From contig CAZPYZ010000001.1 in NCBI GenBank assembly GCA_964590215.1, positions 1-34,269 on the forward strand: a DNA stretch of 34,269 bases, in the 5' to 3' direction. Below the pieces are notes generated by a model, which was given only the letters and a program-made list of their open reading frames with translations, made no database searches and was not told the DNA's origin. This stretch comes from an uncultured Dehalococcoidia bacterium. Lineage in GTDB: Bacteria; Chloroflexota; Dehalococcoidia; SHYD01. The translations under genes and the position numbers were made by a program. This document shows positions 1,330-31,741 of this stretch, in pieces (positions within the stretch are counted from its first letter, which is position 1; each line of letters opens with the position of its first letter).

Positions 1330-1728
1330 TCAGGCCATGACGTCGGCGGCCGCCTTACAGCACTCGTCGTCTTGCTCGGGTGTGCCCCCACTAACACCGA
1401 CGGCACCGATCACCGCGACCTTCTCCTCGATGGGCAGGCCTCCCCCCACGGCCATGACCCGTCCTTGAGTTGAAGCTACTAGGCTGGTGAACCAACTCTC
1501 TTGGGCCATGGCGGTAAGCTGGCTGGTCGGCTGCTGGAACTGCGCGGCGGTGTAGGCCTTGTTGATAGCAACGTCCAGGCTCAAGGGGCGCGCCTTGTCC
1601 ATCCGCCCCACTGCAATCAGGCGACCACCCTCATCGACAACCGCGGCTGTAACCGCTATGCCGAGATCCTCCGCCTTGGCGTGGGCCGCCTCCACCATCT
1701 TCAGGGCTTTGTCCACCGGGATCGGCAT
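1330..1728 (-). CDS. GlcG/HbpS-like heme-binding protein (DUF336 family)
   Basis: This is the C-terminal 132 aa of the long minus ORF 1330..3315. It starts at ATG 1728-1726 with GGAGG upstream. Sequence is MPIPVDKALKMVEAAHAKAEDLGIAVTAAVVDEGGRLIAVGRMD...GGGLPI...IGAVGVSGGTPEQDDECC, typical of the family. The rest of the long ORF is antisense to amtB and is spurious. Confidence 0.8.
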   Translation of the reverse strand: MPIPVDKALKMVEAAHAKAEDLGIAVTAAVVDEGGRLIAVGRMDKARPLSLDVAINKAYTAAQFQQPTSQLTAMAQESWFTSLVASTQGRVMAVGGGLPIEEKVAVIGAVGVSGGTPEQDDECCKAAADVMA

Positions 1729-1856
1729 AGGAACCTCCTCCTCGCTGTCAGTTACGCACGGCTGCGAGTATAAGGCGCACCTGGGCATGGAGCAACGCGT
1801 CTTGCGTCGGGGCAGGTAGGCCGATAAGACGTTCGCGTCCTTCCAGGAGAGCGTCT

Positions 1857-1894
1857 GTAACGGAGCTGTAATCGAGGCGTAACAAGTTTGAAAC
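1857..1894 (+). promoter_or_regulatory. array of four pentamer direct repeats at 11-bp period (GTAAC-n6-GTAAT-n6-GTAAC-n6-GAAAC), candidate winged-helix regulator site upstream of amtB
   Basis: Read directly: GTAAC 1857-1861, GTAAT 1868-1872, GTAAC 1879-1883, GAAAC 1890-1894. The array ends 114 nt upstream of the amtB ATG. Confidence 0.5.
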
Positions 1895-2007
1895 AAACTC
1901 GCCTTACCTTTCGACATAAGGGCGCGGGCTGCCGTGCCCCAGTCTCTCAGTGCTCCCCGTAGCCTGAGCGCACCAAGGAGGCTCTCGGGGGAGGGAAAGG
2001 ATAGGAC

Positions 2008-3273
2008 ATGCCTGGGATCGACACGGGCGATACTGCATGGGTGTTGGCGTCTTCGGCTTTGGTCATGTTGATGACACCAGCGCTTGGGTTCTTTTATGGG
2101 GGGCTGGTTCGGGGGAAGAACGTCCTGGCCACCATCATGCAGAGCTTCTTCATCCTCGCGCTTATCAGCGTGCAGTGGGTGCTGTGGGGGTATAGCCTGG
2201 CCTTCGGGCCGGACATCGGTGGCGGTCTCATTGGAAGCCTGGAGTGGGTGGGCCTTGTCGGGGTTGGTGCAGAGCCCAACGCCGCGTATGCCGCCACGAT
2301 CCCCCACCAGGCCTTTGCCATCTTCCAGATGATGTTCGCGGTGATCACGCCTGCCCTCATTACCGGCGCCTTCGCCGAACGGAAACGGTTCAGGTCCTTT
2401 ATCCTCTTCACCCTGCTCTGGGCCACCCTGGTCTACGATCCCATTGCCCACTGGGTGTGGAGCTGCGGGGCGGTGGACGCAGCCGGCGTCTGCACCAGCC
2501 CCGGCTGGTTGCGGGCCCTTGGCGCGCTCGACTTCGCCGGCGGTACCGTGGTGCATATCAGTTCCGGTGTCTCCGCGCTGGTCGCCGCCTTCGTCCTGGG
2601 GCCCCGCCTGGGCTTTGGCCGGGAGGAGATGCAGTACGACGATGCCCGGATGGTAGTGCTGGGCGCGGCCCTTCTCTGGTTCGGGTGGTTCGGCTTCAAT
2701 GCTGGCAGCGCGGTGGCCTCCGGCGCGCTGGCCACCTCGGCTTTCCTGGTCACGAACACCGCCACCGGCATGGCGGCCCTCACCTGGATGACGGTGAGCT
2801 GGATCCACAAGGGGAGCCCGAGCGTCATCGGAGCTGCGGCGGGTGCCGTCGCCGGCCTGGTGGCTATCACCCCCGCGTCGGGCTTTGTCGACGCTCGTGC
2901 CGCGATTCTCATCGGCCTCGGCGCTGGGGTCTTTTGCTACCTCGGGGTGGAGCTGAAGAACCGGCTGCGAGTCGACGACGCTCTGGACGTCTGGGGCGTC
3001 CATGGGGTCGGCGGAACCTGGGGCGCTTTGGCGACCGGCCTGTTTGCCACCACCGCCGTTAACGCCGCCGGTGCGAACGGACTCTTCTTCGGCAATCCGG
3101 GCCAGTTCCTCATCCAGTTGCTGGCAGTGGCAGTGACCTGGGTCTATGCCGGCGTCATGACCTTCATCATCCTGAAAGTCGTGGAGGCTCTCATGGGTCT
3201 GCGGGTGCCCGAAGAGCAGGAGGTCACGGGCCTGGACATCGCTCAGCACGGCGAGCCAGCTTACCGGCTGTAG
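2008..3273 (+). CDS. amtB: ammonium transporter (Amt family)
   Basis: 421 aa. Contains DTAWVLASSALVMLMTPALGFFYGGLVR, FAGGTVVHISSG, LLWFGWFGFNAGS, DVWGVHGVGGTWGAL and GLDIAQHGE, all classic Amt motifs. SD GGGAGGGAAAGGA lies upstream. Confidence 0.95.
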   Translation: MPGIDTGDTAWVLASSALVMLMTPALGFFYGGLVRGKNVLATIMQSFFILALISVQWVLWGYSLAFGPDIGGGLIGSLEWVGLVGVGAEPNAAYAATIPHQAFAIFQMMFAVITPALITGAFAERKRFRSFILFTLLWATLVYDPIAHWVWSCGAVDAAGVCTSPGWLRALGALDFAGGTVVHISSGVSALVAAFVLGPRLGFGREEMQYDDARMVVLGAALLWFGWFGFNAGSAVASGALATSAFLVTNTATGMAALTWMTVSWIHKGSPSVIGAAAGAVAGLVAITPASGFVDARAAILIGLGAGVFCYLGVELKNRLRVDDALDVWGVHGVGGTWGALATGLFATTAVNAAGANGLFFGNPGQFLIQLLAVAVTWVYAGVMTFIILKVVEALMGLRVPEEQEVTGLDIAQHGEPAYRL

Positions 3274-3286
3274 CGGCCTCCAACAT

Positions 3287-3324
3287 TTAACATGCAGTTC
3301 ACTCACGCGTAACATGGTCGTAAC
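3287..3324 (+). promoter_or_regulatory. second array of four nTnAC pentamers at 11-bp period (TTAAC-n6-TTCAC-n6-GTAAC-n6-GTAAC)
   Basis: TTAAC 3287-3291, TTCAC 3298-3302, GTAAC 3309-3313, GTAAC 3320-3324. It begins 14 nt after the amtB stop and ends 56 nt upstream of the micro-ORF ATG at 3380. Period and orientation match the array at 1857-1894. Confidence 0.4.
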
Positions 3325-4977: not shown

Positions 4978-5259
4978 ATGGGTGAGGACGCCTGGGATGC
5001 GGATAGCCCCGACCCCTACGCCTTGGACTGGGACATCCGGCTGGAGGGGCGGGCATGGGGCCCCCAGAGCAGACAGCGGTACGACCGGACGCCGGAAAAG
5101 CTCGAAATGATCGAAGGCAAGTTGCTGTGGTCGGAGAAGGAGCGGATAGCGCTGCTGGGCTTGCTGCTGGAGAACGTGGGATTGAAGGCCGCGGTCAGGC
5201 TTGCCCCTGCCGAACGCTGGCGGGCCGCACTGGCCGCCGTAGAGCATGAGATCCGCTAG
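4978..5259 (+). CDS. hypothetical small protein (93 aa); intact member of a paralogous pair
   Basis: MGEDAWDADSPDPYALDWDIRLEG...TPEKLEMIEGKLLWSEKERIALLGLLLENVGLKAAVRLAPAERWRAALAAVEHEIR. A recognisable decayed paralogue at 5904-6165 supports that this is a real protein family. An alternative GTG start at 4969 overlaps the gap stop. Confidence 0.55.
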   Translation: MGEDAWDADSPDPYALDWDIRLEGRAWGPQSRQRYDRTPEKLEMIEGKLLWSEKERIALLGLLLENVGLKAAVRLAPAERWRAALAAVEHEIR

Positions 5260-5807
5260 GCGAAGAGGTCGCGGACCCGGCAGGCGAATCCGGGAAGGAG
5301 GGGCTCCCCCGTAAGGATTTCGTCTTCACGGAGCAGTTGGGGCTCCCTGCCACCTTCGTAACGCCGTACGGTGTGGGTCTGACAATACAGGACCCACACC
5401 TGCTGGGCCCCGGCGGCGAGCCACTCTTCCACTTTTTTCTGCACGTCTGAGGGGTGGTCATCGTGGGCGACCACTTCGACCGCTAGGTCCGGCGGGCCTT
5501 CGATGTAGCCACGGGGCAAGCGGCCGCCGGGTAAGCGGTCCTTGCTGATGACGGCGGCGTCGGGAGCTCGCACCGTGTCTGGACCGTGTTCAAGGAGGAA
5601 GCCTGTCTCGGCCCCCAGCACCTCCCAGATCCCGAGGGGCTCAGCATAATGCCCTAGCCTTAAGCCCGCTTTGTGGGAACTGCCTCCGTGCTCTCCTCCG
5701 CCTGGCGGCATCTTGACCAGCTTTCCTTTCACCAACTCATAGCGCCAGCCGTCATCGGGCATCCGCCGCAGCTCATCGGCCGTGACGAGCACTTTCTTTG
5801 TGGTCAC
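5256..5807 (-). CDS. Uma2 family (DUF820) PD-(D/E)xK putative endonuclease
   Basis: 183 aa with a GTG start. Contains YELVKGKLVKMPP near the N-terminus, VRAPDAAVIS, PDLAVEVV and EKVEEWLAAGAQQVWVL, the typical Uma2 arrangement. Confidence 0.85.
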   Translation of the reverse strand: MTTKKVLVTADELRRMPDDGWRYELVKGKLVKMPPGGGEHGGSSHKAGLRLGHYAEPLGIWEVLGAETGFLLEHGPDTVRAPDAAVISKDRLPGGRLPRGYIEGPPDLAVEVVAHDDHPSDVQKKVEEWLAAGAQQVWVLYCQTHTVRRYEGGREPQLLREDEILTGEPLLPGFACRVRDLFA

Positions 5808-10339: not shown

Positions 10340-12526
10340 CTACGGGCTCACAAACCTCCAGGCCGGGGTCCAAGGCAGCGGCTTCTCCTCCCCCGCTCGC
10401 CGCACCCGCCAGTAATAGACGGTCCCGGGGGCTAAGGGATAGCGCTCGGGGATACGGTAGCTGAAGGGTGGGTTGGTGAGCCGCCCGTCGATCGACTCAT
10501 GGTAGAGGAAAGTGCGTCCAAACCACGGGTCGCGGGAAACCTGGATCTCGAACAGGGGGCCCGGGGTCCCTTGCGGCTCCCAGAGGAGCAGAGGAAACCG
10601 CTCCAATGTCTGGGCACCATCGGGAGGTTGGAGAAGGGACACCTTCGGCCGGTAATGGCGGTGAAACTCCGCGACTACCAGCGGGTCCGCCGGCCCAGCC
10701 GGCTCCAGGCGAAAGGCTAGCACTGCATCGTCGTCCCATACCACCCGCTGGCGAAAAACTTGTTCGAAGTACTCTCGCAGCATCAATAGGCTCACCTGGT
10801 TGTAGTAGTCCTTGTGGAGGACCGCGTAGCGAAGGTTTAGGTCGCGCATGGTGCGCGTAAATACGGCCGGGTCGAGGTCCTCGGGAGAGGGTGGGCTGGC
10901 CTCAGGATTGGCGAGCCATCGGACGACGGGCCAGCGCTGGTAGAACTCCAGCAGGTCACTCGAGCCTCTAGCGACATGCCCGTATAAGATGGGTTTACCG
11001 TGCACCACCTGGTAGTACTGCAGCAGTTGGTCACCCCGGCCTAGGGACCCCCCCCGAGGCCCTGCCTCCAGGAGCATCGGCAGCAGCATGAGGCCGAATT
11101 CACCAGGCTCTTGGGCAAGCGCCTGATAGAACGCCGGGACCTCGACGGAGCGGAGAGGCACGGGCGCGACAGCGTAATCGGCGGCGATCGCGATCATCGC
11201 TAGGGCCGCTACAAGGGTGAGCTTCAGGGCGCCCGCCCTCCGAAATGAAGCCAGCCCTACCAGCCGCCGGAAGCCGAAGGCCACCACGACCCCGAGGGCG
11301 AGGTACACCAGAGCTGCAAAGCGCGCGGGGACGCGGCTGGAGCCCACGTACGGTACCTGCTCAAGGATGGCATAGGGCAGGGGAAGGCCAAGGCTCGAGC
11401 CCGCGACCCGGAGCTGTGGCCCGAGGGACAGGAGAGCGAACACAGTCAGCGTGACCAGCCAAAAGCCGCATCCGAAGGATGATGGCGGAGATGAGACAAC
11501 CTCACCTCCCACCGGACCGGCCGACCGAGCTGTTTCTGGAGTAGCCCGAACCAACCATGCTGCGCCAGCCAGCCCAAGAACCACCCAGCCGACGTACGCC
11601 GTGCCCTCGATGCCACCCACGCCTTGGAAATTCGGTGACTCGAATAGAGGTGGACCCGAGCCACCCCAACGAACGGCGCTCGGGAGAAAGAACCCCAACA
11701 GATCGGCACTGAAGTAACCGGGGTCTGTCGGGTTCCCCGCCACAGGATTCTCACCCCCGGCCACCGCCTGCATTACGGGTCCCAGCAGGGGACCGAAGAC
11801 GGCCAGCCAGGCCGCGAGGCCCGCGCACCACGCTCGCCACGGGTAACGAGACACCGGTATTGCCGCCCGGGCGTGGCGTCCCCTTGGCAGCCGGATTTGC
11901 CAATACACCCCTGCCAGTGTTCCCCAGAGAAGCGCGAATACGCCGTACTGGTAGTCCAGCAAGGACGCGGTCCCGAGGAGGGCCCCCGCGGCGAATCCCC
12001 AGCGAGCGCCACCCGTCTGCACGGCCCGGATGAAGCAGAGGGCAAAGAACGGTAACGGCCAGGCCGCCACAAGGTTGAGGTGCCCCCACAGGTGCACCAG
12101 CAGGTAGGGGCTGAAACCAAACACCGTCCCTGCCACCAGCGCAGCCCGGGAGTCACCGGTGAGGTGCATCGCAAGCAGGCAGCAACCCCAGGCGGCGAGG
12201 ATCAAGGAGCCCATAAGCAGGAGGTTGTAGGCGGTCACCACCCCGCCCGCGACCTGGATGGGGTAGGACAGGAGCCCGTACAGCGGAGCGAGGGTATCGA
12301 AGACGAGGCTAACCCCCTGGGGGTGGAAGAGCAGGTCGGTGTGCCAGGGGGAGGCAGCTCGTGAGACAAGGGCGTGGGGTACCCACCAGAGTCTCCAGAG
12401 GAAGTTCGGGCCGTCACCGCCGGTTCCCGGGATGTGGGTGCTTAAGTGCCCCGCGAGGGGCCAGGTCATAACGAGAGCCAAGATCGAGTAGACGACCGGG
12501 GGCAAGCACCAGTGGAGGCGCATCAT
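10340..12526 (-). CDS. large polytopic membrane protein with C-terminal soluble domain (GT-C-like, family not recognised)
   Basis: 728 aa. About 470 N-terminal residues carry many hydrophobic helices (LALVMTWPLAGHLSTHIPGTGGDGPNFLWRLWWVPHAL...). About 250 C-terminal residues are hydrophilic. The start ATG overlaps the yfhO stop (ATGA at 12523-12526). Confidence 0.7.
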   Translation of the reverse strand: MMRLHWCLPPVVYSILALVMTWPLAGHLSTHIPGTGGDGPNFLWRLWWVPHALVSRAASPWHTDLLFHPQGVSLVFDTLAPLYGLLSYPIQVAGGVVTAYNLLLMGSLILAAWGCCLLAMHLTGDSRAALVAGTVFGFSPYLLVHLWGHLNLVAAWPLPFFALCFIRAVQTGGARWGFAAGALLGTASLLDYQYGVFALLWGTLAGVYWQIRLPRGRHARAAIPVSRYPWRAWCAGLAAWLAVFGPLLGPVMQAVAGGENPVAGNPTDPGYFSADLLGFFLPSAVRWGGSGPPLFESPNFQGVGGIEGTAYVGWVVLGLAGAAWLVRATPETARSAGPVGGEVVSSPPSSFGCGFWLVTLTVFALLSLGPQLRVAGSSLGLPLPYAILEQVPYVGSSRVPARFAALVYLALGVVVAFGFRRLVGLASFRRAGALKLTLVAALAMIAIAADYAVAPVPLRSVEVPAFYQALAQEPGEFGLMLLPMLLEAGPRGGSLGRGDQLLQYYQVVHGKPILYGHVARGSSDLLEFYQRWPVVRWLANPEASPPSPEDLDPAVFTRTMRDLNLRYAVLHKDYYNQVSLLMLREYFEQVFRQRVVWDDDAVLAFRLEPAGPADPLVVAEFHRHYRPKVSLLQPPDGAQTLERFPLLLWEPQGTPGPLFEIQVSRDPWFGRTFLYHESIDGRLTNPPFSYRIPERYPLAPGTVYYWRVRRAGEEKPLPWTPAWRFVSP

Positions 12527-15351
12527 CGCCGCCGCTTGGCGAGGATCGCTACGGCGGTTATGAGCCCGGCCCCGCTGACAAGGGACAGCCCAACACCCAG
12601 GCGGAAAGAGTCCGGCTCATAGGAAAACACCACCGAATGGGACCCAGCCGGAACAGGCACAGCCCTCAATAGAGACCTCCACTCCACCACTTCCGAAGCG
12701 CTGCCGTCCGTCCAGGCTTTCCATCCCGGATAGTAGCTGTCGGCTAACACCAGCAACGCTTGGCTCTCGCTAAAGACGTCAAGCGCGACTCTACCGGGGC
12801 CATAGTGCACGAGGTCCACTCTCCCACCCGCAGTGACCGTCTGGTTATCGAGAAACGCCTTTGGGCCCGCTTGGATCTCATACACCTTCACGTCGCCGGT
12901 GTGGACCCGGGACACCCGAGCGTCCGCCGGCGGGCTGTCGCTGGCGCGGGTTCGACGGTCCACGAAGGCTACTCCTGCCAGGGTGAAGGACCCACTCGCC
13001 TGAACAGCTTCGACGGTCAGGCGCCGGAGGTCCATTGGAGCCTCCAGCTCTCGCCACGCCCCATACACGCCGCTCTCCGGGTCCTTGCGCCGATCACTCA
13101 CCCGTCTCGCGGCCGCGTGCTCGGCTCCAGCGAGCCGGGCCCCGTTCGACTCCGCGGTCTCGATACCGGCCCGGAGTGTCCATTCGGCACGCTCACCAAC
13201 TCCCCCTTCAAGGACGACCTGAGCCACCCGCGCCCCCTGGGGCAACGACTGCGCGCCCTCCAGGTAGGTGGCCAGGCTCACTGCGGTCACCGGCTCGGAG
13301 CTGAGTCTGTCCAAGACCACCCTCTCCCCTGGTACAAGCGTCCGTGGGGCACCAAGGTCGTGATAAAACCCGTCGACCCAGGCGTCCCAGAGCCTGTCCG
13401 CGATGACATACCTCACGTTCAGGCGGGCCAGCAAGAGGGGGTCCGGAACGTGCATGGCCCGATCCCGGATCATCACCAGCTCCTCGCCCTCCATTTCGTC
13501 AGGGTTGTCCGCCACCGGTGCGCCGGCCGTGCTCAGTAGCTCGGCTTTCATCGCGGCATAGCGCTTCAGAGGCAGGAGCCCGCCGTCATATCCGTCAAGG
13601 GTAGCGATGCCGAAGCGCAGGGGAATGTTAGGCGTCAGGGTTTCTAGATACTTGCTTGCCGCAACGAATTCCTGGAGCCGAGCTGAGGAAAACTCAGGGA
13701 GGGCCGCTCGGAGCTCCTCCATGTCTCCTGGTTCGTACCCAGGGTCTGCAATGCTGAGCACTCGGTATGAGCCAGGATCCTGGAGGATGTGGGCCAGGGC
13801 TGGCCGAATCGACGGGTAGGCGGCTGGGGGAGCCGGGTTGGCAATCGGCAGGGGAGACCGGGCGAAGAACAACTCGGTCAGGACCAAGACGGAAATGGCC
13901 GCCGCGGAGATTCCTCGCTTGCCGAGCAAGGCCAGCACGAGGCACCCGATGGCCATAGTCAGGGCCACCGCCCAGGAGAGAAAGGAGGCCGGCGGCGGAA
14001 GTGTGAGCCCGCCGGTCACTCGGATGGCTAGGGTGAGGCCAGCCGCGAGGACAAGAAGGACGACGCCGACGGCTGTACGCCGTGGGTTCGCCTGGCCTCG
14101 AAATCCCAGCACCGCCTCGGCCCCCATGCCGGCAAGGCCGGCCACTCCAAAACCGTAGAGGAGCAGCCACCGCGATGGCGCACGGAAGAGGTCGAAACCG
14201 GGCACGTAGTCGTAGAACAACTGATAGAACGGATTGAACCGGCCCCAGGCCAAAAACCAGCCGGTGAAGGCGATGAGAGCAAAGAGGTACGCGATTCTGG
14301 CGGGGCGACCCAGCCAGAAGCCCAGCCAGGCCACGAGCAGGGCCACGACACCGACGTAGGCGACGTACTCGCTGGCCGGCTGGTCCCCATAGGTGGGGAG
14401 GAAAGCACGCACGAACTCCGGGGGCGGAAGCGAGAAGGAGACCGCAGAGGCGTAGCTGAGGCCGCCAGAGCGCACCGACTCACGGGCAAGCTCCAGAGTT
14501 GGAAGGACCTGCGCCGCGGCAACGCCCAGGCCCAGAAGGACGATAAGAGCCAAGTGGACAACCGGAACGGCACGGCCCAGAAGCGGCTGGGCCGCTCCGC
14601 CGTCATTCGGGACCCCAGCGAAGAACCCGTTGGCGGCGGAAACCCTTCCTGAAAGGGCCTTCCCTCCCGTCACGATGGCATACCCCGCGACCAGCGCCAA
14701 CCCGCCAGACGTGATGAACACCTGTTGTGGGTGGCCGGCTAGGAACTGAAGGGCGTACAGACAGGCGCCAGCCAGAGCCCACCTCCAGCTGCTCGGTTTT
14801 CCAGCCTTCAGTAGCGCTAGCACGAGCCAGGGGAGCCAGGCGGCCGCCTGCACCTGGTTTATGTGCCCGGCTTGCGCGGCCAAGAGGCCGCCGAGAGCGA
14901 AGACAACTGCCCCTAGTCCGGCGGCCAAAGCCCCGCACGAGACCCCTGACCTCATCAGGGCATAGAGTCCGGCTCCCGCGATCCACAGATGGACGAGGTA
15001 GGACCAAGCCACCGCCCGAGGAGCACTCAGCCAGGAAAAGGGCCAGTTAAGAGGGTAGAGGACCCCTGCCTGAGGGTTGGCGAGGAAAGGCACGCCGGTG
15101 AACAGGTAAGGGTTCCACAGGGGTAGGCGTCCTTCTCGGAAGGCCGCGGCACGGTGCTCCCAGTAGGGATAGAAATACGCAAAGAGATCGAAGTCGGTGA
15201 GAACGCTCTCGGTGAAGACTAAGGGAGCATGGAAGCCGAGGATGAGGCCCGCGAGGACCGCCATGGCAATGGCGTCCTTTGACCATCTCATTTGGAAGAG
15301 TGCCGCCACGAAAACGGACAGCCGTCGGGTTGCGTGGGCGCCCCTAGTCAC
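12523..15351 (-). CDS. YfhO family membrane protein (GT-C-type glycosyltransferase candidate)
   Basis: 942 aa. Contains FAYFYPYWEHRAAAFREGRLPLWNPYLFTGVPFLANPQAGVLYPLNWPF, the hallmark YfhO N-terminal motif. It also has many TM helices, a large extracytoplasmic C-terminal region and a terminal TM anchor followed by KRRR. The GTG start overlaps the ykgJ-like stop (GTGA at 15348-15351). Confidence 0.85.
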   Translation of the reverse strand: MTRGAHATRRLSVFVAALFQMRWSKDAIAMAVLAGLILGFHAPLVFTESVLTDFDLFAYFYPYWEHRAAAFREGRLPLWNPYLFTGVPFLANPQAGVLYPLNWPFSWLSAPRAVAWSYLVHLWIAGAGLYALMRSGVSCGALAAGLGAVVFALGGLLAAQAGHINQVQAAAWLPWLVLALLKAGKPSSWRWALAGACLYALQFLAGHPQQVFITSGGLALVAGYAIVTGGKALSGRVSAANGFFAGVPNDGGAAQPLLGRAVPVVHLALIVLLGLGVAAAQVLPTLELARESVRSGGLSYASAVSFSLPPPEFVRAFLPTYGDQPASEYVAYVGVVALLVAWLGFWLGRPARIAYLFALIAFTGWFLAWGRFNPFYQLFYDYVPGFDLFRAPSRWLLLYGFGVAGLAGMGAEAVLGFRGQANPRRTAVGVVLLVLAAGLTLAIRVTGGLTLPPPASFLSWAVALTMAIGCLVLALLGKRGISAAAISVLVLTELFFARSPLPIANPAPPAAYPSIRPALAHILQDPGSYRVLSIADPGYEPGDMEELRAALPEFSSARLQEFVAASKYLETLTPNIPLRFGIATLDGYDGGLLPLKRYAAMKAELLSTAGAPVADNPDEMEGEELVMIRDRAMHVPDPLLLARLNVRYVIADRLWDAWVDGFYHDLGAPRTLVPGERVVLDRLSSEPVTAVSLATYLEGAQSLPQGARVAQVVLEGGVGERAEWTLRAGIETAESNGARLAGAEHAAARRVSDRRKDPESGVYGAWRELEAPMDLRRLTVEAVQASGSFTLAGVAFVDRRTRASDSPPADARVSRVHTGDVKVYEIQAGPKAFLDNQTVTAGGRVDLVHYGPGRVALDVFSESQALLVLADSYYPGWKAWTDGSASEVVEWRSLLRAVPVPAGSHSVVFSYEPDSFRLGVGLSLVSGAGLITAVAILAKRRR

Positions 15352-15731
15352 TCACTCCTTCTCCCATGAGGGAGGGGCGACAGCAGTTTCTCGGCTGCGC
15401 CAAAACGTTTCCAACTCAGGGCGCACCACTCGAGCAGGTCTGTCGGGAATGCGCGGCAGTGGACCGGGCGATCGGTGTAGATACGGCAGAGGTTGTTCTT
15501 GTTGAGAAAGGTGCACGGACGGGCCTGCATGATGAAGCCTACAGTCTCGCTGTGAATGATGTCCGGGGGAGGGACCTGGAGGGTTCGGGCCAGGCTACCG
15601 AGGTGGTAGACCTCGGCGAGGGTGAGGGGCACCGCACTCGCCTTGCAACACCGGGCGCCGCACTCTTGCGAGCATATGGTCTTGTCTGACCGGCTCAACT
15701 TGGGCAGGCGAGGTACCCGACCCTGTCTCAC
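15348..15731 (-). CDS. YkgJ family cysteine-cluster protein (CxxCxxCC zinc/iron-chelating domain)
   Basis: Contains ICSQECGARCCK and ...PCTFLNKNNLCRIYTDRPVHCRAFP, the bipartite Cys pattern of the YkgJ/UPF0153 family. I placed the start at GTG 15731-15729, which overlaps the GT2 stop TGA 15730-15728 (GTGA), with GGTGG 5 nt upstream. The track ORF extends to 15785. Confidence 0.7.
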   Translation of the reverse strand: MRQGRVPRLPKLSRSDKTICSQECGARCCKASAVPLTLAEVYHLGSLARTLQVPPPDIIHSETVGFIMQARPCTFLNKNNLCRIYTDRPVHCRAFPTDLLEWCALSWKRFGAAEKLLSPLPHGRRSE

Positions 15732-16465
15732 CAAAACCACCGAAACCGTAGAAGGGCAAAGAGGACCGAGAACCCATCCTGCCACCGCAGGTTCTTCCCC
15801 TCCTCGAAACTCCTCCCGTGGTAATCGATCGGCACCTCGGTGATACGGTACCCAAGGCGTAGGATCTTGGCTGTTATCTCCGGGTCAAAGCCCCAGCGTT
15901 CAGACACCAGGTTGAGGCGCCCAGCTATGCTTGCGGGGAAGACCTTGTAGCATGTCTCCATGTCCGTGAGGCTGGTACCGAAAAGGAGGTTGGTCATCCA
16001 GGTTACGAAGCGGTTCCCGGCGGCGTGAGACCGGGACATGGCCTCGCGGCGCCCCAGGAAGCGAGAGCCGTAGACGACATCTGCTTCTCCTCGCTGGACG
16101 AGGGTCACCAGGGCCGGGTAGTCGGCGGGGTTATACTCCAAATCCGCGTCCTGGATGATAACAACTTCACCTAGGACATGGGTGAGTCCGGTGCGGACCG
16201 CAGCGCCCTTGCCCAAGTTCCTGGGATGGCGGAACACTCGAGTGTCCGGCTGGTTGCTTTCCTCTTGCAAAACTTCCCAGGTACCATCTCCAGAGCAGTC
16301 GTCGATGCACAGGATCTCCTTGTCGATGGGCACCGCGCGGACTCGCCTGAGGATCTCCTGGATATGAGCCCGCTCGTTGTAGACGGGCATCACGACGGAC
16401 AGGTAGGGCGCACTCACCAGACGCGTTTTCTCGCGATGCGTCTCATTTCCCGGCAAGGCCTTCAA
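15728..16465 (-). CDS. family 2 glycosyltransferase, polyprenol-phosphate sugar synthase-like (DPM1/Ppm1/CsbB-type catalytic domain, no C-terminal TM helices)
   Basis: LSVVMPVYNERAHIQEIL...ILCIDDCSGDGT...VIIQDADLEYNP...VYGSRF is the GT-A fold with DxD/ED signatures. The start is uncertain: TTG 16465 overlaps the gpsA 3' end by 23 nt, and GTG 16417 is also possible. Confidence 0.85.
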   Translation of the reverse strand: MKALPGNETHREKTRLVSAPYLSVVMPVYNERAHIQEILRRVRAVPIDKEILCIDDCSGDGTWEVLQEESNQPDTRVFRHPRNLGKGAAVRTGLTHVLGEVVIIQDADLEYNPADYPALVTLVQRGEADVVYGSRFLGRREAMSRSHAAGNRFVTWMTNLLFGTSLTDMETCYKVFPASIAGRLNLVSERWGFDPEITAKILRLGYRITEVPIDYHGRSFEEGKNLRWQDGFSVLFALLRFRWFW

Positions 16466-17459
16466 GCTCGTACTTAGGCTCCCTCGCCATCAACTCGAAC
16501 ACGGCGTTGCGGGGGTCGAGGCCTTCGTGGAGCACCCGGTAGGTCATTTCCGTAATCGGCATCTCGACCGCCATCCGGCGGGCAAGGTCCCGGGCCGCAA
16601 CTGTTGTGGTGATTCCCTCAGCCACGCCGTTGAGCCCCCGCTGCACCTCCTCCAGCGATTTGCCCCGGGCCAGTTCCTCTCCAGCGCGCCGGTTACGGCT
16701 GTGGGGACTGGTGCAGGTCGCCACCAGGTCACCTAGGCCAGCGAGACCGAGGAACGTGAGGGGGTCGGCACCGGCCGCCACGCCCAGCCGGGTAATCTCT
16801 GCCAAGCCGCGCGTCATGAACGCGGCTTTCGAGTTCGCCCCAAACCCCCACCCGTCGTTCATCCCGGCGCCGAGGGCGATGATGTTCTTCAGGGTGCCGC
16901 CTAGCTCGACCCCAACGACATCATGGCTGGAGTAGACCCGTAGTCTCTGTGTTCTCACGAGCTCTCGGGCCTCGTCGGCCACCGCGGGGCTGCCCGAGGC
17001 GATTACCGTCGCCGAAGGCATGCCGTCCGCTATTTCCCGGGAGATGTTTGGACCTGAGAGGGCACAAAGCCGCCCTGCGGCGCTAGGGACCTCCTGCAGC
17101 AGGACCTCAGACATGCGCAGGCAAGTCCCCAGCTCGAGACCCTTGGCTGCGCTGACGATGATAGTGTCTGGACTGATAGCGGGTGCGATCTGCCGAGCGT
17201 TCTGGCGGAGCGTCTGGGAAGGAACGGCAAGGATCGCCAAGCGACAACCGGTTAATGCCTCCTCAGGAACACCCGAGACCGCGAGTGACGAGGGAAACCG
17301 GATGCCTGGGAGGCGCAGGCAATTCTCGCGCTGGGCCTCCAGTTCCAGTGCCTCCTCCCTCGAGCGAGCGAGGAGGAAGACCGCCAACCCCTTTTGCGCG
17401 AGCACCACAGCGAGGGTCGTCCCCCAACTGGTGGTGCCGACCACGGTGACCTTGGGCAA
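16443..17459 (-). CDS. gpsA: NAD(P)H-dependent glycerol-3-phosphate dehydrogenase
   Basis: 338 aa. Contains VTVVGTTSWGTTLAVVLA, GTLKNIIALGAGMNDG and GDLVATCTSPHSRNRRAGE. TTG start. Confidence 0.93.
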   Translation of the reverse strand: MPKVTVVGTTSWGTTLAVVLAQKGLAVFLLARSREEALELEAQRENCLRLPGIRFPSSLAVSGVPEEALTGCRLAILAVPSQTLRQNARQIAPAISPDTIIVSAAKGLELGTCLRMSEVLLQEVPSAAGRLCALSGPNISREIADGMPSATVIASGSPAVADEARELVRTQRLRVYSSHDVVGVELGGTLKNIIALGAGMNDGWGFGANSKAAFMTRGLAEITRLGVAAGADPLTFLGLAGLGDLVATCTSPHSRNRRAGEELARGKSLEEVQRGLNGVAEGITTTVAARDLARRMAVEMPITEMTYRVLHEGLDPRNAVFELMAREPKYELEGLAGK

Positions 17460-17507: not shown

Positions 17508-18170
17508 TTATCCGGCCCCGGGCGGCAGAGGAACACGGCTGAGCCTCCGAGACGGGGGCCGCCGGGGCGGGTCCGGATCCCCGATTCTCCGTTCCGTCCC
17601 TCGCTGCAAGCGAAGGATGTTGTCTCGGTGCCGCAGGATAACGATGAGCCCGCCGGGGACCGCATACAGCAGGAGCTCCGGTCGGCCCATCCCAAAGGCC
17701 ACTGCCAATGCCATCAAGGGGAGGGCGACCGCGGCACCTACCACCGAGCCAAGGGACACATATCTCGAAAGGAAGATGACAGAGACCGTAATCAGCGTCA
17801 CTACAGCAGCCACCAACGGCGCCATAGCAAACAACGCAGCTACGCCAGTGACCACGCCACGCCCGCCAGAGAAACCGAGGAAGATGGCCCAAGTATGCCC
17901 GGCCAGCGCGGCCAGTCCCGCTAACACCTGGGCCAAAGGCGTGCCGATGAGATAAGTGGCGAGAAGGACGGGGAGGTAGCCCTTAAGAAAATCTCCAACA
18001 AAGACGACGACGAAGGCCACTGGGCCGAGGACACGCAGAGCGTTAGCGGCGCCCGGGTTGCCGCTGCCGTGCTTGCGGATGTCGATCCCCCGGGCGAGCT
18101 TCGCGACGAGTGAGGCAGTGGGAATACTTCCCATGAGATAGCTTGTCAGGGCAATAGCCACATATTCCAT
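17508..18170 (-). CDS. plsY: glycerol-3-phosphate acyltransferase PlsY
   Basis: Contains YLMGSIPTASLVAKL..IDIRKHGSGNPGAANALRVLG and a polytopic profile. It has a Pro/Arg-rich C-terminal extension of about 25 aa. Confidence 0.92.
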   Translation of the reverse strand: MEYVAIALTSYLMGSIPTASLVAKLARGIDIRKHGSGNPGAANALRVLGPVAFVVVFVGDFLKGYLPVLLATYLIGTPLAQVLAGLAALAGHTWAIFLGFSGGRGVVTGVAALFAMAPLVAAVVTLITVSVIFLSRYVSLGSVVGAAVALPLMALAVAFGMGRPELLLYAVPGGLIVILRHRDNILRLQRGTERRIGDPDPPRRPPSRRLSRVPLPPGAG

Positions 18171-18175
18171 GGCCC

Positions 18176-19534
18176 TTACTCCTCGCCACGCGCCTTGAAA
18201 ACTAGTCGCAGCGCCGTGCCCTCAAACCCGAACGCCTCCCGGAGGCGGTTCTCCAGAAACCGTTGATAGCTAAAATGAAGCAACCTTGGGTCATTAACGA
18301 AGAAAACAAACGTTGGGGGCGATACTCCCGCCTGCGTCGCGTAGAATACCTTCAGTTGCCGCCCATGGGTTACGCCGGGTGGATGGGCTTCCACCGCTCG
18401 CCGCACTACCTGGTTCACCGTACCGGTGGGTATCCGCAACTCCCGGGCCTCCTGCACCGCCAGCACCGCGTGTAGCAGGCTATCGACTCCCTGCCCAAGT
18501 TTAGCGGACACGAAGCAAACAGGCACGTGGGGGAAGAACTTGAAACGGGAGCGGACCTGGGCCATCACCTCCCCTCGTTTGAGCTCCGAGGCGCTGGCTA
18601 GGTCCCACTTATTGATGACGATGACTAGGCCCTTGTATGCCTCCTGGACGTAGCCAGCCACGTGGGCATCCTGCGCCGTGGGACCTTCAGCCGCGTCCAG
18701 TACGAGGGCGGCGACATCCGCCCGGCTGATCGCCCGCAACGCGCGCATCACGCTGTATTTCTCCACGCCCACTGCAACCCGACCGGAACGCCGGATGCCC
18801 GCGGTGTCTATCATGGTCATGGCAGTGCCGTGAAAGGCGAAGGGAGTGTCCACTGCGTCCCGCGTCGTCCCCGGCGTTGGGCTCACGAGCACCCGGTCAC
18901 GCCCCAGGACCGCGTTTACCAGCGTCGATTTGCCCACATTGGGACGGCCAATAACGGCCACGGCGGTACCCGCGGCGGCAACGGGGCCGGGGCTAACCGA
19001 GGGGAGCACTTCGGCGGCTGCGGCGCGGAGGTCATCGAGGCCGGTTGCGTGATGAGCACTGACCGGAATCGGGTCGCCGAGGCCAAGGGCATAAAACTCG
19101 GCTGCGTCCAGTTCTCGACTACGATTGTCGGCCTTGTTCGCGACGAGAAGGACAGGCTGTTGAGCCTGACGCAACACCTGGGCCACGTCCTCGTCAGCAG
19201 GAGTAACCCCGGCGCTGGCGTCCACCAGGAAGAAGATCAGGTCGGCCTCCTCGAGAGCCATCCGAGCCTGTTCTTGGACGCCGGCTTCCACCCCACCAGC
19301 TTGTCCTCCCGCCGGGACGCGCTCTCTTGAACCCGAGCCGGGATCGAGCCCCCCGGTATCCACAAGGGTTACCAATGACCCATCCCAATCGAGGTCGCCG
19401 TAGATCCGGTCCCGAGTGGTGCCGGGCCGGTCCTCGACAATTGCCTCCCGGCGTCCCAAGAGGCGGTTGAAGAGGGTCGACTTGCCGACGTTGGGCCGGC
19501 CCACCAAAGCGACCATGGGCCGGGGACTGCTCAT
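18176..19534 (-). CDS. der: ribosome biogenesis GTPase Der (EngA), tandem GTPase domains + KH-like domain
   Basis: Two G1 motifs (GRPNVGKSTLFN, GRPNVGKSTLVN) with DTGG/DTAG and NKAD/NKWD motifs. The start ATG overlaps the cdaR stop (ATGA at 19531-19534). Confidence 0.95.
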   Translation of the reverse strand: MSSPRPMVALVGRPNVGKSTLFNRLLGRREAIVEDRPGTTRDRIYGDLDWDGSLVTLVDTGGLDPGSGSRERVPAGGQAGGVEAGVQEQARMALEEADLIFFLVDASAGVTPADEDVAQVLRQAQQPVLLVANKADNRSRELDAAEFYALGLGDPIPVSAHHATGLDDLRAAAAEVLPSVSPGPVAAAGTAVAVIGRPNVGKSTLVNAVLGRDRVLVSPTPGTTRDAVDTPFAFHGTAMTMIDTAGIRRSGRVAVGVEKYSVMRALRAISRADVAALVLDAAEGPTAQDAHVAGYVQEAYKGLVIVINKWDLASASELKRGEVMAQVRSRFKFFPHVPVCFVSAKLGQGVDSLLHAVLAVQEARELRIPTGTVNQVVRRAVEAHPPGVTHGRQLKVFYATQAGVSPPTFVFFVNDPRLLHFSYQRFLENRLREAFGFEGTALRLVFKARGEE

Positions 19535-20793
19535 CGGTCCGGCTCTGTTGATACCCGCACGGAGGAGGGTATCACCCGGGATAGCTGGAGGCCAGGCGGC
19601 AGCTCCACCTGAGGCTCAATCTCGTAGCTTCCCATTCCTCTCCCCTCCAGATTCAGGTACACCTGTACTCGGTTGGCGCCAAAGTCTCGCAGGGCCGGGC
19701 CTTCTCCAGACACCGCCACCTCGACCGATGGCGCATCGCTGCGGGCGATGAGCCCGGGTGCCAGTCCCCGAATCTGGGGAGCAACCAGCACGGCCGCATT
19801 CCCCCTGACCGGCTGAACGGTGATCTCGACCTGGACGGAGTTGCGGTCTACCACCGTGATCCCGGAGGGCACACTGAGCGTCGCCGTCCGGGTGGTAGCG
19901 CTCGCGAGATTGGTCACATCGACTGGCGCGGTCTTCAAGCTCCCCAGGTGCTGCACAACGTCCTGGGGACCGAGAATAGCTACCGTTGGTGGTGTGACCC
20001 GCACCTGGCTGACCCAGAACCCGGCGACGGGCGTGCCCGTTAACTCGAGGACGACCGGCAGGGTCATATAGACCGACTGTCGACTAATGCGCAGATCGAT
20101 ATTCACGGTTGCTGGCTCGATGCGCACGCCGGATACGTCGTAGCCTCTGGCGCTCCTCGCTTCCAACGGGAAAGACTGCACCACGTTGGCCCGAATGCTG
20201 CTGAGGTTCACATCGGCGACGGCGGCGTCTACGGTGGTCACCAATTGCTGCGGCCCCAGCACCGTCACCTGTGAGACTTCCGGTCGCGGTGGCTCGAACC
20301 CAAATCCAAGAGGCGGCCCTTGCTGGACGTTGACTTGGACCGGCACCGTCCGCCGTATCAACTTGTCCAACTGCGTCTCGACCAGGGGCGGGATCACCTC
20401 CAAAACCCGAACACGACCGTCTCTGGCCCGGACCGACACGGGTTCCCGTACGGGACCTTCGGGAGAGCCGGTCAGGTCGACCGTCGCCTCGAAACTGGCC
20501 TCGGTGAACCCCATCCAAAGGTCTGAGGGAGCCGTGACCCGCACCACCACCGGCTCAATAGCTCCGAGGACATCCAAGTCCGAGGGAACGTTGACCGGCC
20601 GCACCGGGATATTGAAGGGCACGATGCTGGTTCGGGGAGGGTTCTGCTCATTACTGACGAAGACCCAGATGGAGATCGACAGGGCGAGGGCGAGGGCGCC
20701 CATACCTTTGTTGTGGCGTAAAGAACCGACGAACGCGTCCGCGAGGAGTCCCACGGAGTGGGCAGCAGCCCGCAGGTCGCGAAGCCTGGGCAT
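19531..20793 (-). CDS. cdaR: YbbR domain-containing protein (CdaR, diadenylate cyclase regulator)
   Basis: 420 aa. It has an N-terminal TM segment (LALALSISIWVFV) followed by repeated beta-rich YbbR-like modules. It lies immediately downstream of cdaA, in the canonical position. Confidence 0.8.
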   Translation of the reverse strand: MPRLRDLRAAAHSVGLLADAFVGSLRHNKGMGALALALSISIWVFVSNEQNPPRTSIVPFNIPVRPVNVPSDLDVLGAIEPVVVRVTAPSDLWMGFTEASFEATVDLTGSPEGPVREPVSVRARDGRVRVLEVIPPLVETQLDKLIRRTVPVQVNVQQGPPLGFGFEPPRPEVSQVTVLGPQQLVTTVDAAVADVNLSSIRANVVQSFPLEARSARGYDVSGVRIEPATVNIDLRISRQSVYMTLPVVLELTGTPVAGFWVSQVRVTPPTVAILGPQDVVQHLGSLKTAPVDVTNLASATTRTATLSVPSGITVVDRNSVQVEITVQPVRGNAAVLVAPQIRGLAPGLIARSDAPSVEVAVSGEGPALRDFGANRVQVYLNLEGRGMGSYEIEPQVELPPGLQLSRVIPSSVRVSTEPDR

Positions 20794-20796
20794 GAG

Positions 20797-21657
20797 CTAG
20801 CTCCCGTTGACCTGTCGGGAAGGGAGTCCCGTCCGCTCGAACTTGGCCCCATCATGCCCCGGCCGAGTGCCATTGTGGGAGACGAGGTATCCCAGCAGCA
20901 CCTCGCGTAACCGGTCGCTGTCCCCCAGGGTGGCCAACTGGCCATTGGCGGCGATAGTGACGGTGGCCCGCTCTTCTGACACCGCCACTGCAATAGCATC
21001 CGTCCGCTCCGAGATGCCCAAGGCTGCCCGGTGGCGCATCCCTAACCCTAGGTGCTCCCCTACGTTGTCCGAGAGCGGTAGCACACATCGGGTGGCAATG
21101 ATCCGGCCGTGGCGGATGACGGCGGCGCCATCGTGAAAGGGGGAACCCGTGTGGAAGAGACCAATCAGGAGCTCCGCCGACAGCAAGGCGTCGACTTTGA
21201 CGCCTTGATCGATGTAATCCTGCAGCCCTGTCTCCCGTTCCAGAACCACCAATGCGCCGATGTGCCGTTGAGCGAGGATGCGCCCAGCCCGAGCCACGGC
21301 TTCGACAGTTTCCACTGCCTCCTGGCCGACGGCGCCGGACCGCCACGGGCTCAGCCCCCGGCCCATGTGCTCCAATACTCGTCGTAGCTCCGGCTGGAAC
21401 AGAATGGGGAGGGCAATCAAAAGAGCGGGGAGCGAATTTCGAAGCAGCCAACCGACGACCGAGAGTTCAAATGCCGCGCTGGCCACAAAGCCGACCACGT
21501 AAACGGCGACCAGGGCCCTCAGCAGAGTGATGGCAGTGGTCCCACGCAAGAGGACCAGCAGCCAATAGAGCAGAAACGCGACGACCAGGATGTCAATGAG
21601 GCTTCGCAGGTCGAAGCGCCCGAAGGTGTTAACAATGGTTGCCGTCAGTTCCTGCAT
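20797..21657 (-). CDS. cdaA: diadenylate cyclase CdaA (DisA_N/DAC domain, three N-terminal TM helices)
   Basis: GALVVLERETGLQDYIDQG...FHDGAAVIRHGRIIATRCVLPLS...LGMRHRAALGISERTDAIAVAVSEE carries the DGA and RHR signatures of DAC domains. Confidence 0.93.
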   Translation of the reverse strand: MQELTATIVNTFGRFDLRSLIDILVVAFLLYWLLVLLRGTTAITLLRALVAVYVVGFVASAAFELSVVGWLLRNSLPALLIALPILFQPELRRVLEHMGRGLSPWRSGAVGQEAVETVEAVARAGRILAQRHIGALVVLERETGLQDYIDQGVKVDALLSAELLIGLFHTGSPFHDGAAVIRHGRIIATRCVLPLSDNVGEHLGLGMRHRAALGISERTDAIAVAVSEERATVTIAANGQLATLGDSDRLREVLLGYLVSHNGTRPGHDGAKFERTGLPSRQVNGS

Positions 21658-23468: not shown

Positions 23469-23555
23469 GTCGTGGCTGGGAATCGGGGTCTGCCCCCTTA
23501 GTCCGCCTGAAACCTGTCTCCGGCAGGCAGGCTGAACTGCAGTTGGAGGTTGGTA

Positions 23556-24395
23556 GTGTCGGCACAGGTTTCCATGAAGTCCCTGTTAGAAGCGGGCGTT
23601 CACTTTGGCCACCAGACACGGCGGTGGAACCCGAAGATGAAGCGCTACATTTTTACTGAGCGCAACGGGATCCACATCATCGATCTGCAACAGACTGTTA
23701 TCAAACTCCAAGAGGCGTACACCTTCGTCCGAGACCTCGTGGCCAACGGCGGCAGCGTCCTGTTCGTTGGCACCAAGAAGCAGGCCCAGGAGTCCGTCGA
23801 GAGTGAAGCGAGGCGCTGCGGTATGTACTATGTCAATCAGCGTTGGCTCGGCGGCACCCTCACAAACTTCTCCACCATCCAGTCTCGCATTGATTATCTC
23901 GTCCGTTTGGAGGACAGGAAGGCCAAGGGGGAATTGGACCGGCTCCCGAAGAAGGAGAGTATGAAGCTGGAGGAGGAGATCCAGCGGCTGAACCGGCAGT
24001 TGGGCGGCATCAAAGAGATGACGCGTATCCCCTCCACGCTCTTCATCGTCGACTCCCCCAAAGAGCGGATCGCCGTTCTTGAGGCCCTCCGCCTGGGAAT
24101 CCCTATCGTCGGCATCGCCGACACCAATAGCGACCCAGAGGAGATGGACTACCCCATCCCGGGGAACGACGACGCAATTCGAGCGGTTAAGCTCCTCTGC
24201 AACAAGATTGCCGACGCGGCCTTGGAGGGCCTGGCTGGTCGCGAGTATTACGACGAGGAAGAAGGGCTTGAGGCTGGCGCCTCCCACATCTTCGAGCCCA
24301 CAGACGAGGACGAACGGGACCCAGCTCCAGTAACGTTCGAGTCGCCACGTGAAGAGACGTTCGGGGTTGCCGCACGGTCCGAGACCACACCGTAG
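23556..24395 (+). CDS. rpsB: 30S ribosomal protein S2
   Basis: [24 protein letters not shown]... I preferred GTG 23556 because GGAGG at 23545-23549 directly abuts the track start TTG 23550. It has an acidic C-terminal tail. Confidence 0.95.
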
Positions 24396-24488
24396 CGGCG
24401 AAGAAGAGAGCCCCATCAGGGGCCGAGCCAAATCGACCCCAAGCCTTTACGTCTCTCGCTGAAGGAAACGGTGGGAAAAGGAGCACGA

Positions 24489-25801
<1,313 letters not shown>

Positions 25802-25852
25802 CGCGCCACGAGACATGGTCATGAGATTGCCCTAAAGGCGCCGCGGGCCTCC

Positions 25853-25880
25853 TACCTGGTACCTCGTACCTCATACCTGG
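25853..25880 (+). repeat. four tandem heptamers TACCTGG-TACCTCG-TACCTCA-TACCTGG in the pyrH-frr spacer
   Basis: Read directly. The repeat ends 3 nt before the frr SD (ACGGAG at 25884-25889). Confidence 0.9.
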
Positions 25881-25895
25881 AATACGGAGCGGGCC

Positions 25896-26453
25896 ATGAT
25901 TGATGAGGTATTCGCATCAGCCGAAGACCGGATGAAGAAGTCCGTCCACGCTGAAGAACGGGATCTTTCTGCGATTCGCACCGGGCGAGCGAGGCCAGCC
26001 TTGGTGGAGAACCTCCAAGTCGAGTACTACGGCACGCCGACGGCCCTCAGCCAGGTGGCTTCCATTAAGGTGCCAGATGCCCGCCTGCTGGTCATAGAGC
26101 CCTGGGACCGCAGCGTGCTGGGCGGCATAGAAAAGGCTATTCTCAAGTCGGACATCGGTCTCAACCCATCCAACGACGGGACAGTGATCCGCCTGAGTTT
26201 CCCCCCGCTCACCCAAGAACGCCGACAAGAGCTGGTAAAGGTAGTCCACAAGAAAGTGGAGGACGGGAAGATCGCCCTGCGGAACATCCGTCGTGACGCG
26301 CACGAAGAACTCCGGGCCATGGAGAAGCGCAAGGAGATCTCCGAGGATGAGGAAAAGCGCGCTACAGAGCAGCTCCAGAAGCTGGTGGACCGCTACATCC
26401 AGCAGATGGAGCAGATTGGGAAGGCGAAAGAATCCGAGCTGATGGAGATTTGA
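25896..26453 (+). CDS. frr: ribosome recycling factor
   Basis: 185 aa. Contains [24 protein letters not shown] and [10 protein letters not shown]...SEDEEKR..EQLQKL. Confidence 0.96.
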
Positions 26454-27794: not shown

Positions 27795-27849
27795 GCCCAT
27801 CCGCAGTGGTTGCAAGCGAACCGTCACCTGAGCCAGCCGAAGGTGGCCA

Positions 27850-28989: not shown

Positions 28990-28991
28990 CG

Positions 28992-30074: not shown

Positions 30075-30129
30075 CACCTTCTTCCCTCTGCCTCAGGGAG
30101 AGGGCCAGGGTGAGGGCAACGGCCATCGC

Positions 30130-31266: not shown

Positions 31267-31279
31267 GCGGTCGTTGGCG

Positions 31280-31730: not shown

Positions 31731-31741
31731 CTGGGAACCCC

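Follow-up and report, generated by a model that had tools for sequence, protein, structure and literature searches.

A putative lipid-carrier-dependent glycosylation cluster of Dehalococcoidia combining an anchorless GT2 synthase, two GT-C proteins and an inserted cysteine-cluster gene

The closest described counterpart of the genes analyzed here is the Pgf cluster of streptococci, in which one synthase (PgfS) is combined with two YfhO-type glycosyltransferases of the C fold (GT-C), PgfM1 and PgfM2; Pgf and the GtrB/PgtC2 system are both instances of protein O-glycosylation by YfhO-type enzymes (bioRxiv 10.1101/2024.05.05.592596). Synthases that are devoid of a membrane anchor and accompanied by a small partner gene are known from the Ppm1/Ppm2 and PpgS/Rv3632 pairs (PMC3485146) and from GacI/GacJ; such two-protein variants are recognized, and the gene for the flippase normally lies at another place in the genome (PMC8035078). 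The present study concerns four consecutive genes in a 34,269-nt stretch of DNA from an uncultured Dehalococcoidia bacterium (the window: positions 1-34,269 of contig CAZPYZ010000001.1, assembly GCA_964590215.1). The genes encode a family 2 glycosyltransferase (GT2), a small cysteine-cluster (Cys) protein, a YfhO-family protein and a second large membrane protein of 728 amino acids (aa). With a probability of about 0.7, the cluster is best explained as a lipid-carrier-dependent extracytoplasmic glycosylation module with two GT-C enzymes and a Cys accessory protein. The four open reading frames (ORFs) lie as follows:

15728-16465, minus strand: GT2 synthase; 245 aa at most, about 229 aa from the probable start, GTG 16417
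15348-15731, minus strand: PF03692 Cys-cluster protein; 127 aa from GTG 15731, 116 aa from TTG 15698
12523-15351, minus strand: YfhO-family GT-C; 942 aa at most, other starts at ATG 15291 and ATG 15264 (913 aa)
10340-12526, minus strand: second GT-C (728 aa), recognized by profile and fold match

The product of the GT2 gene matches PF00535 (E-value 2e-31). Its best solved relatives, ArnC, Pyrococcus DPMS and GtrB, are all polyprenyl-phosphate glycosyltransferases, and the protein has the features of the GT-A/GT2 class of these enzymes. Alignment with the 327 residues of ArnC extends to residue 211, short of that protein's C-terminal region, and the GT2 itself ends at this point. No transmembrane helix is found in the GT2, the highest hydropathy of any 19-residue segment being 1.04 on the Kyte-Doolittle scale; the initial annotation was right in describing the protein as devoid of C-terminal transmembrane helices, since no hydrophobic segment is present and the classical C-terminal anchor of a synthase is missing. 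Orthologues from across the Chloroflexota are 51-73% identical, keep the DAD motif and the other catalytic columns invariant and without exception terminate in a common amphipathic LLRFRF tail. Among the NCBIfam models, AglJ, PpgS, ArnC, Dol-P-hexose transferase and PgfS give matches, all far below their cutoffs: for PpgS the score is 77 against a cutoff of 370 (E-value 1.7e-21), and for PgfS (NF047588) it is 55 against an equivalog cutoff of 500 (E-value 7e-15). Together, these comparisons identify the GT2 as a predicted polyprenyl-phosphate sugar synthase without membrane anchor.

The 942-aa protein scores 47.6 bits against PF09586 (cutoff 28.5), though only over residues 846-923, and thereby belongs to the YfhO family; the same domain is carried by all 120 homologues listed, several of which are named YfhO family by NCBI. 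Its sequence contains about 12 hydrophobic segments, followed by an extracytoplasmic domain of some 400 aa (approximately residues 500-920) and a terminal transmembrane helix. Invariant in the family are D55, just past the first transmembrane helix, and the motif R390-x-P392-x-R394-W395. The match to the PgfM1 model (NF047589) scores 19 against an equivalog cutoff of 1400 (E-value 3e-4). Family membership thus predicts a YfhO-family GT-C glycosyltransferase. The proposal that a GT2 and a YfhO protein form the core of a lipid-carrier-based extracytoplasmic glycosylation system is therefore sustained by the PF00535 and PF09586 matches and by the solved relatives.

No Pfam or NCBIfam match, PF09586 included, is obtained with the 728-aa protein, and a sequence search of solved structures with this protein and with the YfhO protein returned nothing useful. 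Its affiliation becomes apparent when families are compared: hhalign aligns the 728-aa family with the YfhO family over 487 columns (probability 99.8%, E-value 1.6e-27), setting the invariant D38 of the former opposite D55 of the latter and RVPAR opposite RAPSR. Like D55, D38 stands just past the first transmembrane helix, so that a conserved acidic residue is present in the first outer loop of both proteins. An AlphaFold2 model of the 728-aa protein (mean pLDDT 84.3, pTM 0.88) was compared with the PDB using Foldseek. The top 26 matches are all GT-C structures, among them AglB, STT3, ArnT, AftD, DPY19, PglB, AftA, Pmt4, ALG12 and EmbA/B, with E-values from 3.5e-7 to 1e-2 and TM-scores of 0.3-0.5, consistent with a GT-C fold; FN3 domains come next, matching at the C-terminus. 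The model comprises a transmembrane domain (approximately 1-450), an alpha/beta domain (455-625) and an FN3-like beta-sandwich (630-728). The initial annotation had described a polytopic protein with a soluble domain of about 250 aa and asked whether it has a GT-C fold; the C-terminal soluble part comes to about 280 aa, and the modelled fold is that of a GT-C. Because the YfhO profile match and the GT-C structure matches concur, the 728-aa protein is identified, at the level of model and profile, as another GT-C enzyme, distantly paralogous to YfhO. The same two results rule out a protein with no relation to carbohydrates.

Homologues of the 728-aa protein carry precomputed matches to PF19830, PF09852, PF09586, PF10131 or PF13231. 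On re-scanning, close homologues gave only sub-threshold GT-C matches; since the PF19830 matches were not reproduced, the DUF6311 label was discarded and the family is here termed GT-C/YfhO-like. Many of its members (876-967 aa) have ILEI (PF15711) or F5/8 type C-related domains fused at their C-termini, and in one contig (L101, 8001-10695) a separate ILEI ORF follows the GT-C gene within an array of TMEM260/PMT-type GT-Cs. From these varied fusions and the separate ILEI ORF, the family is seen to swap its outer domains, which presumably bind acceptors.

Scanning genomes with the YfhO alignment retrieved 80 Chloroflexota loci, at 32-42% identity. In 42 of them a GT2 orthologue lies upstream of the YfhO gene on the same strand. 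The two genes are directly adjacent in 9 of these 42 loci; in 27, a PMT_2-type GT-C gene stands between them. A PMT_2-like gene immediately precedes YfhO in about 20 further loci, many of which lie on truncated contigs. Since the PMT_2 gene intervenes in 27 of the 42 GT2-linked loci, the usual pattern around YfhO in this phylum combines a single synthase with a pair of GT-Cs. Some Anaerolineae loci (L037, 4494-8428; L014, L024, L036, L039) have extra genes between the GT2/PMT_2 pair and YfhO, encoding a right-handed beta-helix protein, a glycosyl hydrolase core-like protein and large GT-C-like ORFs, which suggests larger glycan-processing islands.

The small protein encoded between GT2 and YfhO matches PF03692 (CxxCxxCC, YkgJ-like) with 40.1 bits (cutoff 23) and is thus a member of this family. 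It has no transmembrane segment and is predicted to be soluble. Eight cysteines are invariant among its close homologues, in the pattern C-x3-C-x3-CC...C...C...C...C, the first motif being spaced C-x3-C-x3-CC and not CxxCxxCC. Values of dN/dS against three homologues range from 0.12 to 0.31, indicating purifying selection. The question raised at the outset as to whether the YkgJ-like ORF is conserved as coding is thereby answered: the above-cutoff Pfam match, the low dN/dS and the kept position rule out an artefact of high GC content and mark the ORF as a real gene. Assignment to FliB, the flagellin lysine methylase (NF038110, 373 aa), was considered and rejected, since the score of 20 bits falls short of the cutoff (85) and only the N-terminal Cys domain matches. 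The profile search for a solved relative gave only a chance-level match to NiaR, and the literature on YkgJ/CxxCxxCC proteins yielded nothing informative on function. The next-closest relatives of the Cys protein (P0257, P0259 and P0261; 187-233 aa) share a conserved helical N-terminal extension of about 80 aa ("RALLELLEE-GLL...EF").

In surveying YfhO-YkgJ adjacency, as the initial annotation had advised, the Cys gene was found next to YfhO in four contigs: the order is GT2-Cys-YfhO in L095 and L097, Cys-YfhO in L102, and CdaA-YbbR-Der-PlsY-GpsA-GT2-Cys-YfhO in L103, a 121-kb groundwater contig. A fifth contig, L096, reads GpsA-GT2-Cys, and one further contig shows the gene spacing of the GT2-Cys-YfhO contigs, as judged from spacing and not from DNA. 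Within these five contigs (L095-L097, L102 and L103) the Cys subfamily is 40-68% identical. The survey had the opposite outcome in the 80 Chloroflexota loci, none of which has the adjacency. Nor are the four genes kept as a unit, as the initial annotation would have had it: GT2-Cys-YfhO and YfhO-728 are each confined to a narrow clade.

It had also been proposed that each junction of the cluster is a 4-nt start/stop overlap. The tetranucleotides are all present and in the right frames (GTGA 15731-15728, GTGA 15351-15348 and ATGA 12526-12523), but for two of the three it is uncertain which start codon is used. Overlaps of 4 nt occur at ybbR/der (19531-19534) and frr/uppS (26450-26453) as well, and thus characterize the compact genome in general, with its high GC content (about 64% in the window), and not the cluster alone. 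Where GT2 meets the Cys gene, the N-terminal sequence that Cys homologues conserve ("M/V-KSDK") maps to TTG 15698. This codon lies 33 nt past the GTG of the overlap, so that 33 extra nt (15698-15731) separate the GT2 stop from the conserved "SDK" N-terminus. In L095, L096 and L097 the GT2 stop and the Cys start overlap as GTGA, abutting the conserved N-terminus. Since the GTGA overlap itself is kept in these three relatives, a start at the overlapping GTG, giving the window protein an 11-aa extension, is plausible. The Cys/YfhO overlap is doubtful, because NCBI annotates a YfhO protein of 913 aa from Met30 (ATG 15264; another gene caller gives 942 aa), homology to relatives starts near residue 24, the YfhO frame of L097 opens only past the Cys stop, and AAGGAG lies only 3 nt before GTG 15351. 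The ATGA overlap between YfhO and the 728-aa gene is solid and the most secure of the three; in a 65% identical relative (L002) the two genes overlap by 13 nt as called. At the other end of the cluster, homology begins at "PYLSVV", which makes GTG 16417, 25 nt past the gpsA stop, the probable start of GT2.

The features described above suggest the following scheme. A peripheral GT2 would charge polyprenyl phosphate with a single sugar at the cytoplasmic face of the membrane, as its homologues do, and a protein encoded elsewhere would flip the lipid-linked sugar. The YfhO-family and 728-aa GT-Cs, for each of which family, fold and a conserved aspartate are established, would then transfer the sugar to acceptors outside the membrane, their activity and acceptors being predicted. 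Like streptococcal PgfM1 and PgfM2, the two would most likely act on separate acceptors or catalyze consecutive steps. The acceptors are most plausibly proteins, whether secreted or membrane-bound, because YfhO-type enzymes carry out protein O-glycosylation in streptococci (bioRxiv 10.1101/2024.05.05.592596); the acceptor may instead be a polymer or a glycolipid. The putatively metal-binding Cys protein would most likely partner or regulate the anchorless GT2, or the hand-off to YfhO. Clade-restricted and dispensable, it would, speculatively, be an accessory analogous to Ppm2, Rv3632 and GacJ by position and not by nature. A stronger version, in which it is a dedicated metal- or redox-dependent subunit tethering or gating GT2 at YfhO, seems rather improbable.

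A number of observations weigh against the proposal of a two-GT-C module with a Cys accessory. The functions of the proteins are predictions from sequence and structure models, and the GT2 reaches no NCBIfam equivalog cutoff, remaining far below each. The membrane ORFs in the 34-kb window include no flippase of the GtrA or Wzx type, as the initial annotation had noted for GtrA. The known partners of anchorless synthases sit in the membrane, whereas the Cys protein is predicted to be soluble; its AlphaFold2 model, built from a 4-sequence alignment, has a pLDDT of 65 and no Foldseek match. The nearest genome relatives, two metagenome-assembled genomes of Dehalococcoidia (L003 and L004), have the order Der-PlsY-GpsA-GT2-YfhO, with neither a Cys gene nor a 728-aa homologue, and no Cys homologue was detected in the 80 surveyed loci by hidden Markov model and motif search. 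It follows that GT2 and YfhO work without the Cys protein. Finally, the 728-aa gene adjoins YfhO only in L002, which has the same MOSC and ADH genes downstream, while homologues at 44% identity or less (44% for L001) stand alone or in other contexts and GT-C arrays.

Of the competing explanations, the one that survives best is that the Cys gene is an unrelated passenger: having entered between GT2 and YfhO in one lineage, it would encode a small metalloprotein and be co-transcribed with the glycosylation genes but take no part in glycosylation. This is a real possibility, if short of an even chance. Its absence from L003, L004 and the 80 loci speaks for it, all the more as L003 and L004 are closer to the window than L103 in Der, GpsA, GT2 and YfhO (Der 58-61% versus 52%; YfhO 41-42% versus 35%). 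PF03692 is moreover a large and varied family: 493 representative clusters are reached at E<=1e-3, and 18 at E<=1e-10, among them P0252, P0254, P0257, P0259 and P0261. The gene in L103 is separated from its neighbors by 277 and 177 nt. The distant PF03692 homologues retrieved from metagenomes with the Cys alignment (L083-L094; 26-44% identity) have no GT2 or YfhO neighbor, a result that is in line with a passenger but says nothing about the close Cys subfamily. Against a passenger stands the fact that every readable close member (in the window, L095, L096, L097, L102 and L103) adjoins GT2, YfhO or both, and lies between them wherever both flanks are on the contig, down to 40% identity; furthermore, the start/stop overlap with GT2 is kept in three relatives and the gene is under purifying selection. 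Because L103 has the gene though more diverged than L003 and L004, which lack it, the distribution is patchy, implying either an old acquisition followed by losses or transfer, with position faithful throughout.

It is unlikely, though conceivable, that the 728-aa GT-C was added recently and uses another lipid-linked donor independently of GT2, the four-gene unit being an accident of packing. Such an origin would account for the homologues at 44% identity or less that do not lie by GT2 or YfhO (L001, L098, L100) or belong to other GT-C arrays (L101), and for the lack of the gene in L103, L003 and L004. The start of the 728-aa gene, however, overlaps the YfhO stop both in the window and in L002, and in systems of this kind several GT-Cs usually draw on a single synthase (PMC8035078).

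The four genes form the tail of a long, tightly packed minus-strand block, cdaA-ybbR-der-plsY-gpsA-GT2-Cys-YfhO-GT-C2, whose upstream members were assigned from Pfam matches:

16443-17459, minus strand: gpsA
17508-18170, minus strand: plsY
18176-19534, minus strand: der
19531-20793, minus strand: ybbR/cdaR
20797-21657, minus strand: cdaA (c-di-AMP cyclase)

The gpsA to cdaA genes and the four-gene cluster are probably one transcription unit; counts of promoter and terminator signals were at or below shuffled expectation, which neither helps nor harms this idea. The order cdaA-ybbR/cdaR-der-plsY-gpsA is common to the window (19531-21657) and L103 (1-4756); only the der-plsY-gpsA part of the block could be scored in L003 and L004. 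GT2-YfhO is attached at the gpsA end of this c-di-AMP and phospholipid block in the window, L103, L003 and L004. The weakest alternative, that the sugar goes not to proteins but, after the CsbB/YfhO model, to an envelope polymer, glycerolipid-anchored or otherwise, of a teichoic-acid-like or glycolipid kind, draws on the linkage of GT2-YfhO to der-plsY-gpsA in the window, L003, L004, L096 and L103 and on the YfhO enzymes of Bacillus, Staphylococcus and Listeria, which glycosylate lipoteichoic or wall teichoic acid (PMC8035078), but is improbable given that this linkage is found only in this clade, the pair having another location, in company with a PMT_2 enzyme, in most Chloroflexota loci, that the window has no teichoic-acid synthesis genes, its remaining genes being housekeeping ones, and that YfhO-type enzymes O-glycosylate proteins as well (bioRxiv 10.1101/2024.05.05.592596).

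On the plus strand, positions 23550-33454 hold a housekeeping block with rpsB, pyrH, frr, uppS, cdsA, dxr, rseP (M50 with PDZ), ispG and proS; uppS, which would supply the polyprenyl carrier, is about 10 kb from the glycosylation genes. A 430-aa minus-strand ORF without Pfam match (24530-25822), antisense to pyrH (AA_kinase; 25046-25801, plus strand), is probably a spurious long ORF of a type common in high-GC DNA. Near the cluster are a Uma2-family endonuclease gene (5256-5807, minus strand) and, convergent with the 728-aa gene, a gene for a small retropepsin-like aspartyl protease (PF13975; 9926-10318, plus strand); no link of either to the cluster was seen. The sole domain of a 661-aa minus-strand ORF (1330-3315) is a C-terminal HbpS-like one (residues 534-657). 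Because this match covers only the C-terminus and a full-length ammonium transporter gene lies opposite (2008-3273, plus strand; E-value 6.5e-124), the 661-aa ORF is likely mostly non-coding.

The architecture as a whole had been thought undescribed. This view does not stand: in the Chloroflexota loci a GT2 is most often accompanied by two GT-Cs, Pgf provides a precedent, and anchorless synthases and unlinked flippases are known. Two YfhO-type GT-Cs served by one synthase, a synthase without anchor and a flippase encoded elsewhere are all established features. What is new is the clade-restricted PF03692 insertion, the placement of a Pfam-invisible family in the GT-C/YfhO superfamily and the description of a widespread GT2-GT-C cluster in the Chloroflexota; no paper mentioning both YfhO and Chloroflexi was found in the literature searched. 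Members of the phylum widely encode a conserved anchorless GT2 beside YfhO-type and other GT-Cs, and the newly placed family is a large one, comprising the 728-aa protein and about 200 detected homologues. Should the Cys protein prove coupled to glycosylation, it would offer a testable handle on the uncharacterized YkgJ/CxxCxxCC family and shed light on the membrane recruitment of soluble lipid-sugar synthases. Were it in fact a dedicated subunit, this would be the first defined role of a stand-alone YkgJ-type protein and a new kind of GT-C accessory.

Set against the known systems, the cluster is a fairly ordinary putative envelope-glycosylation operon whose sole unusual feature is the inserted Cys gene. 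It resembles the Pgf cluster of S. mutans (PgfS, PgfE, PgfM1, PgfM2) in bringing together one GT-A/GT2 and two YfhO-type GT-Cs, with the catalytic aspartate of the GT-Cs facing outward. Unlike Pgf, it is found in another phylum, has no epimerase gene, has a GT2 without transmembrane helices and a Cys gene inserted, and its second GT-C is much more divergent, with no Pfam match of its own; the cluster would thus work like the Pgf system without being a member of it by equivalog scores. With CsbB/YfhO and GtlA/GtlB of Firmicutes it shares the pairing of a GT2 with YfhO or another GT-C, and in those systems too the flippase gene typically lies at another locus (PMC8035078). However, CsbB-type synthases carry C-terminal transmembrane helices, which the window GT2 lacks, the acceptors in those systems are teichoic acids, and the window adds a second GT-C and the Cys protein. 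An anchorless GT2 followed by a small gene, its product being used by a GT-C, recalls Ppm1/Ppm2, PpgS/Rv3632 (with the GT-C Rv3779) and GacI/GacJ (PMC3485146, PMC8035078), but the Ppm2, Rv3632 and GacJ partners are integral membrane proteins whereas the candidate partner in the window is a soluble, Cys-rich PF03692 protein. The GT2-PMT_2-YfhO clusters of Anaerolineae have the same orientation and two GT-Cs per synthase (GT2 51-57% and YfhO 32-38% identical to the window proteins); there, the PMT_2 gene stands between GT2 and YfhO, whereas in the window the Cys gene occupies this place and a YfhO-like GT-C gene lies downstream.

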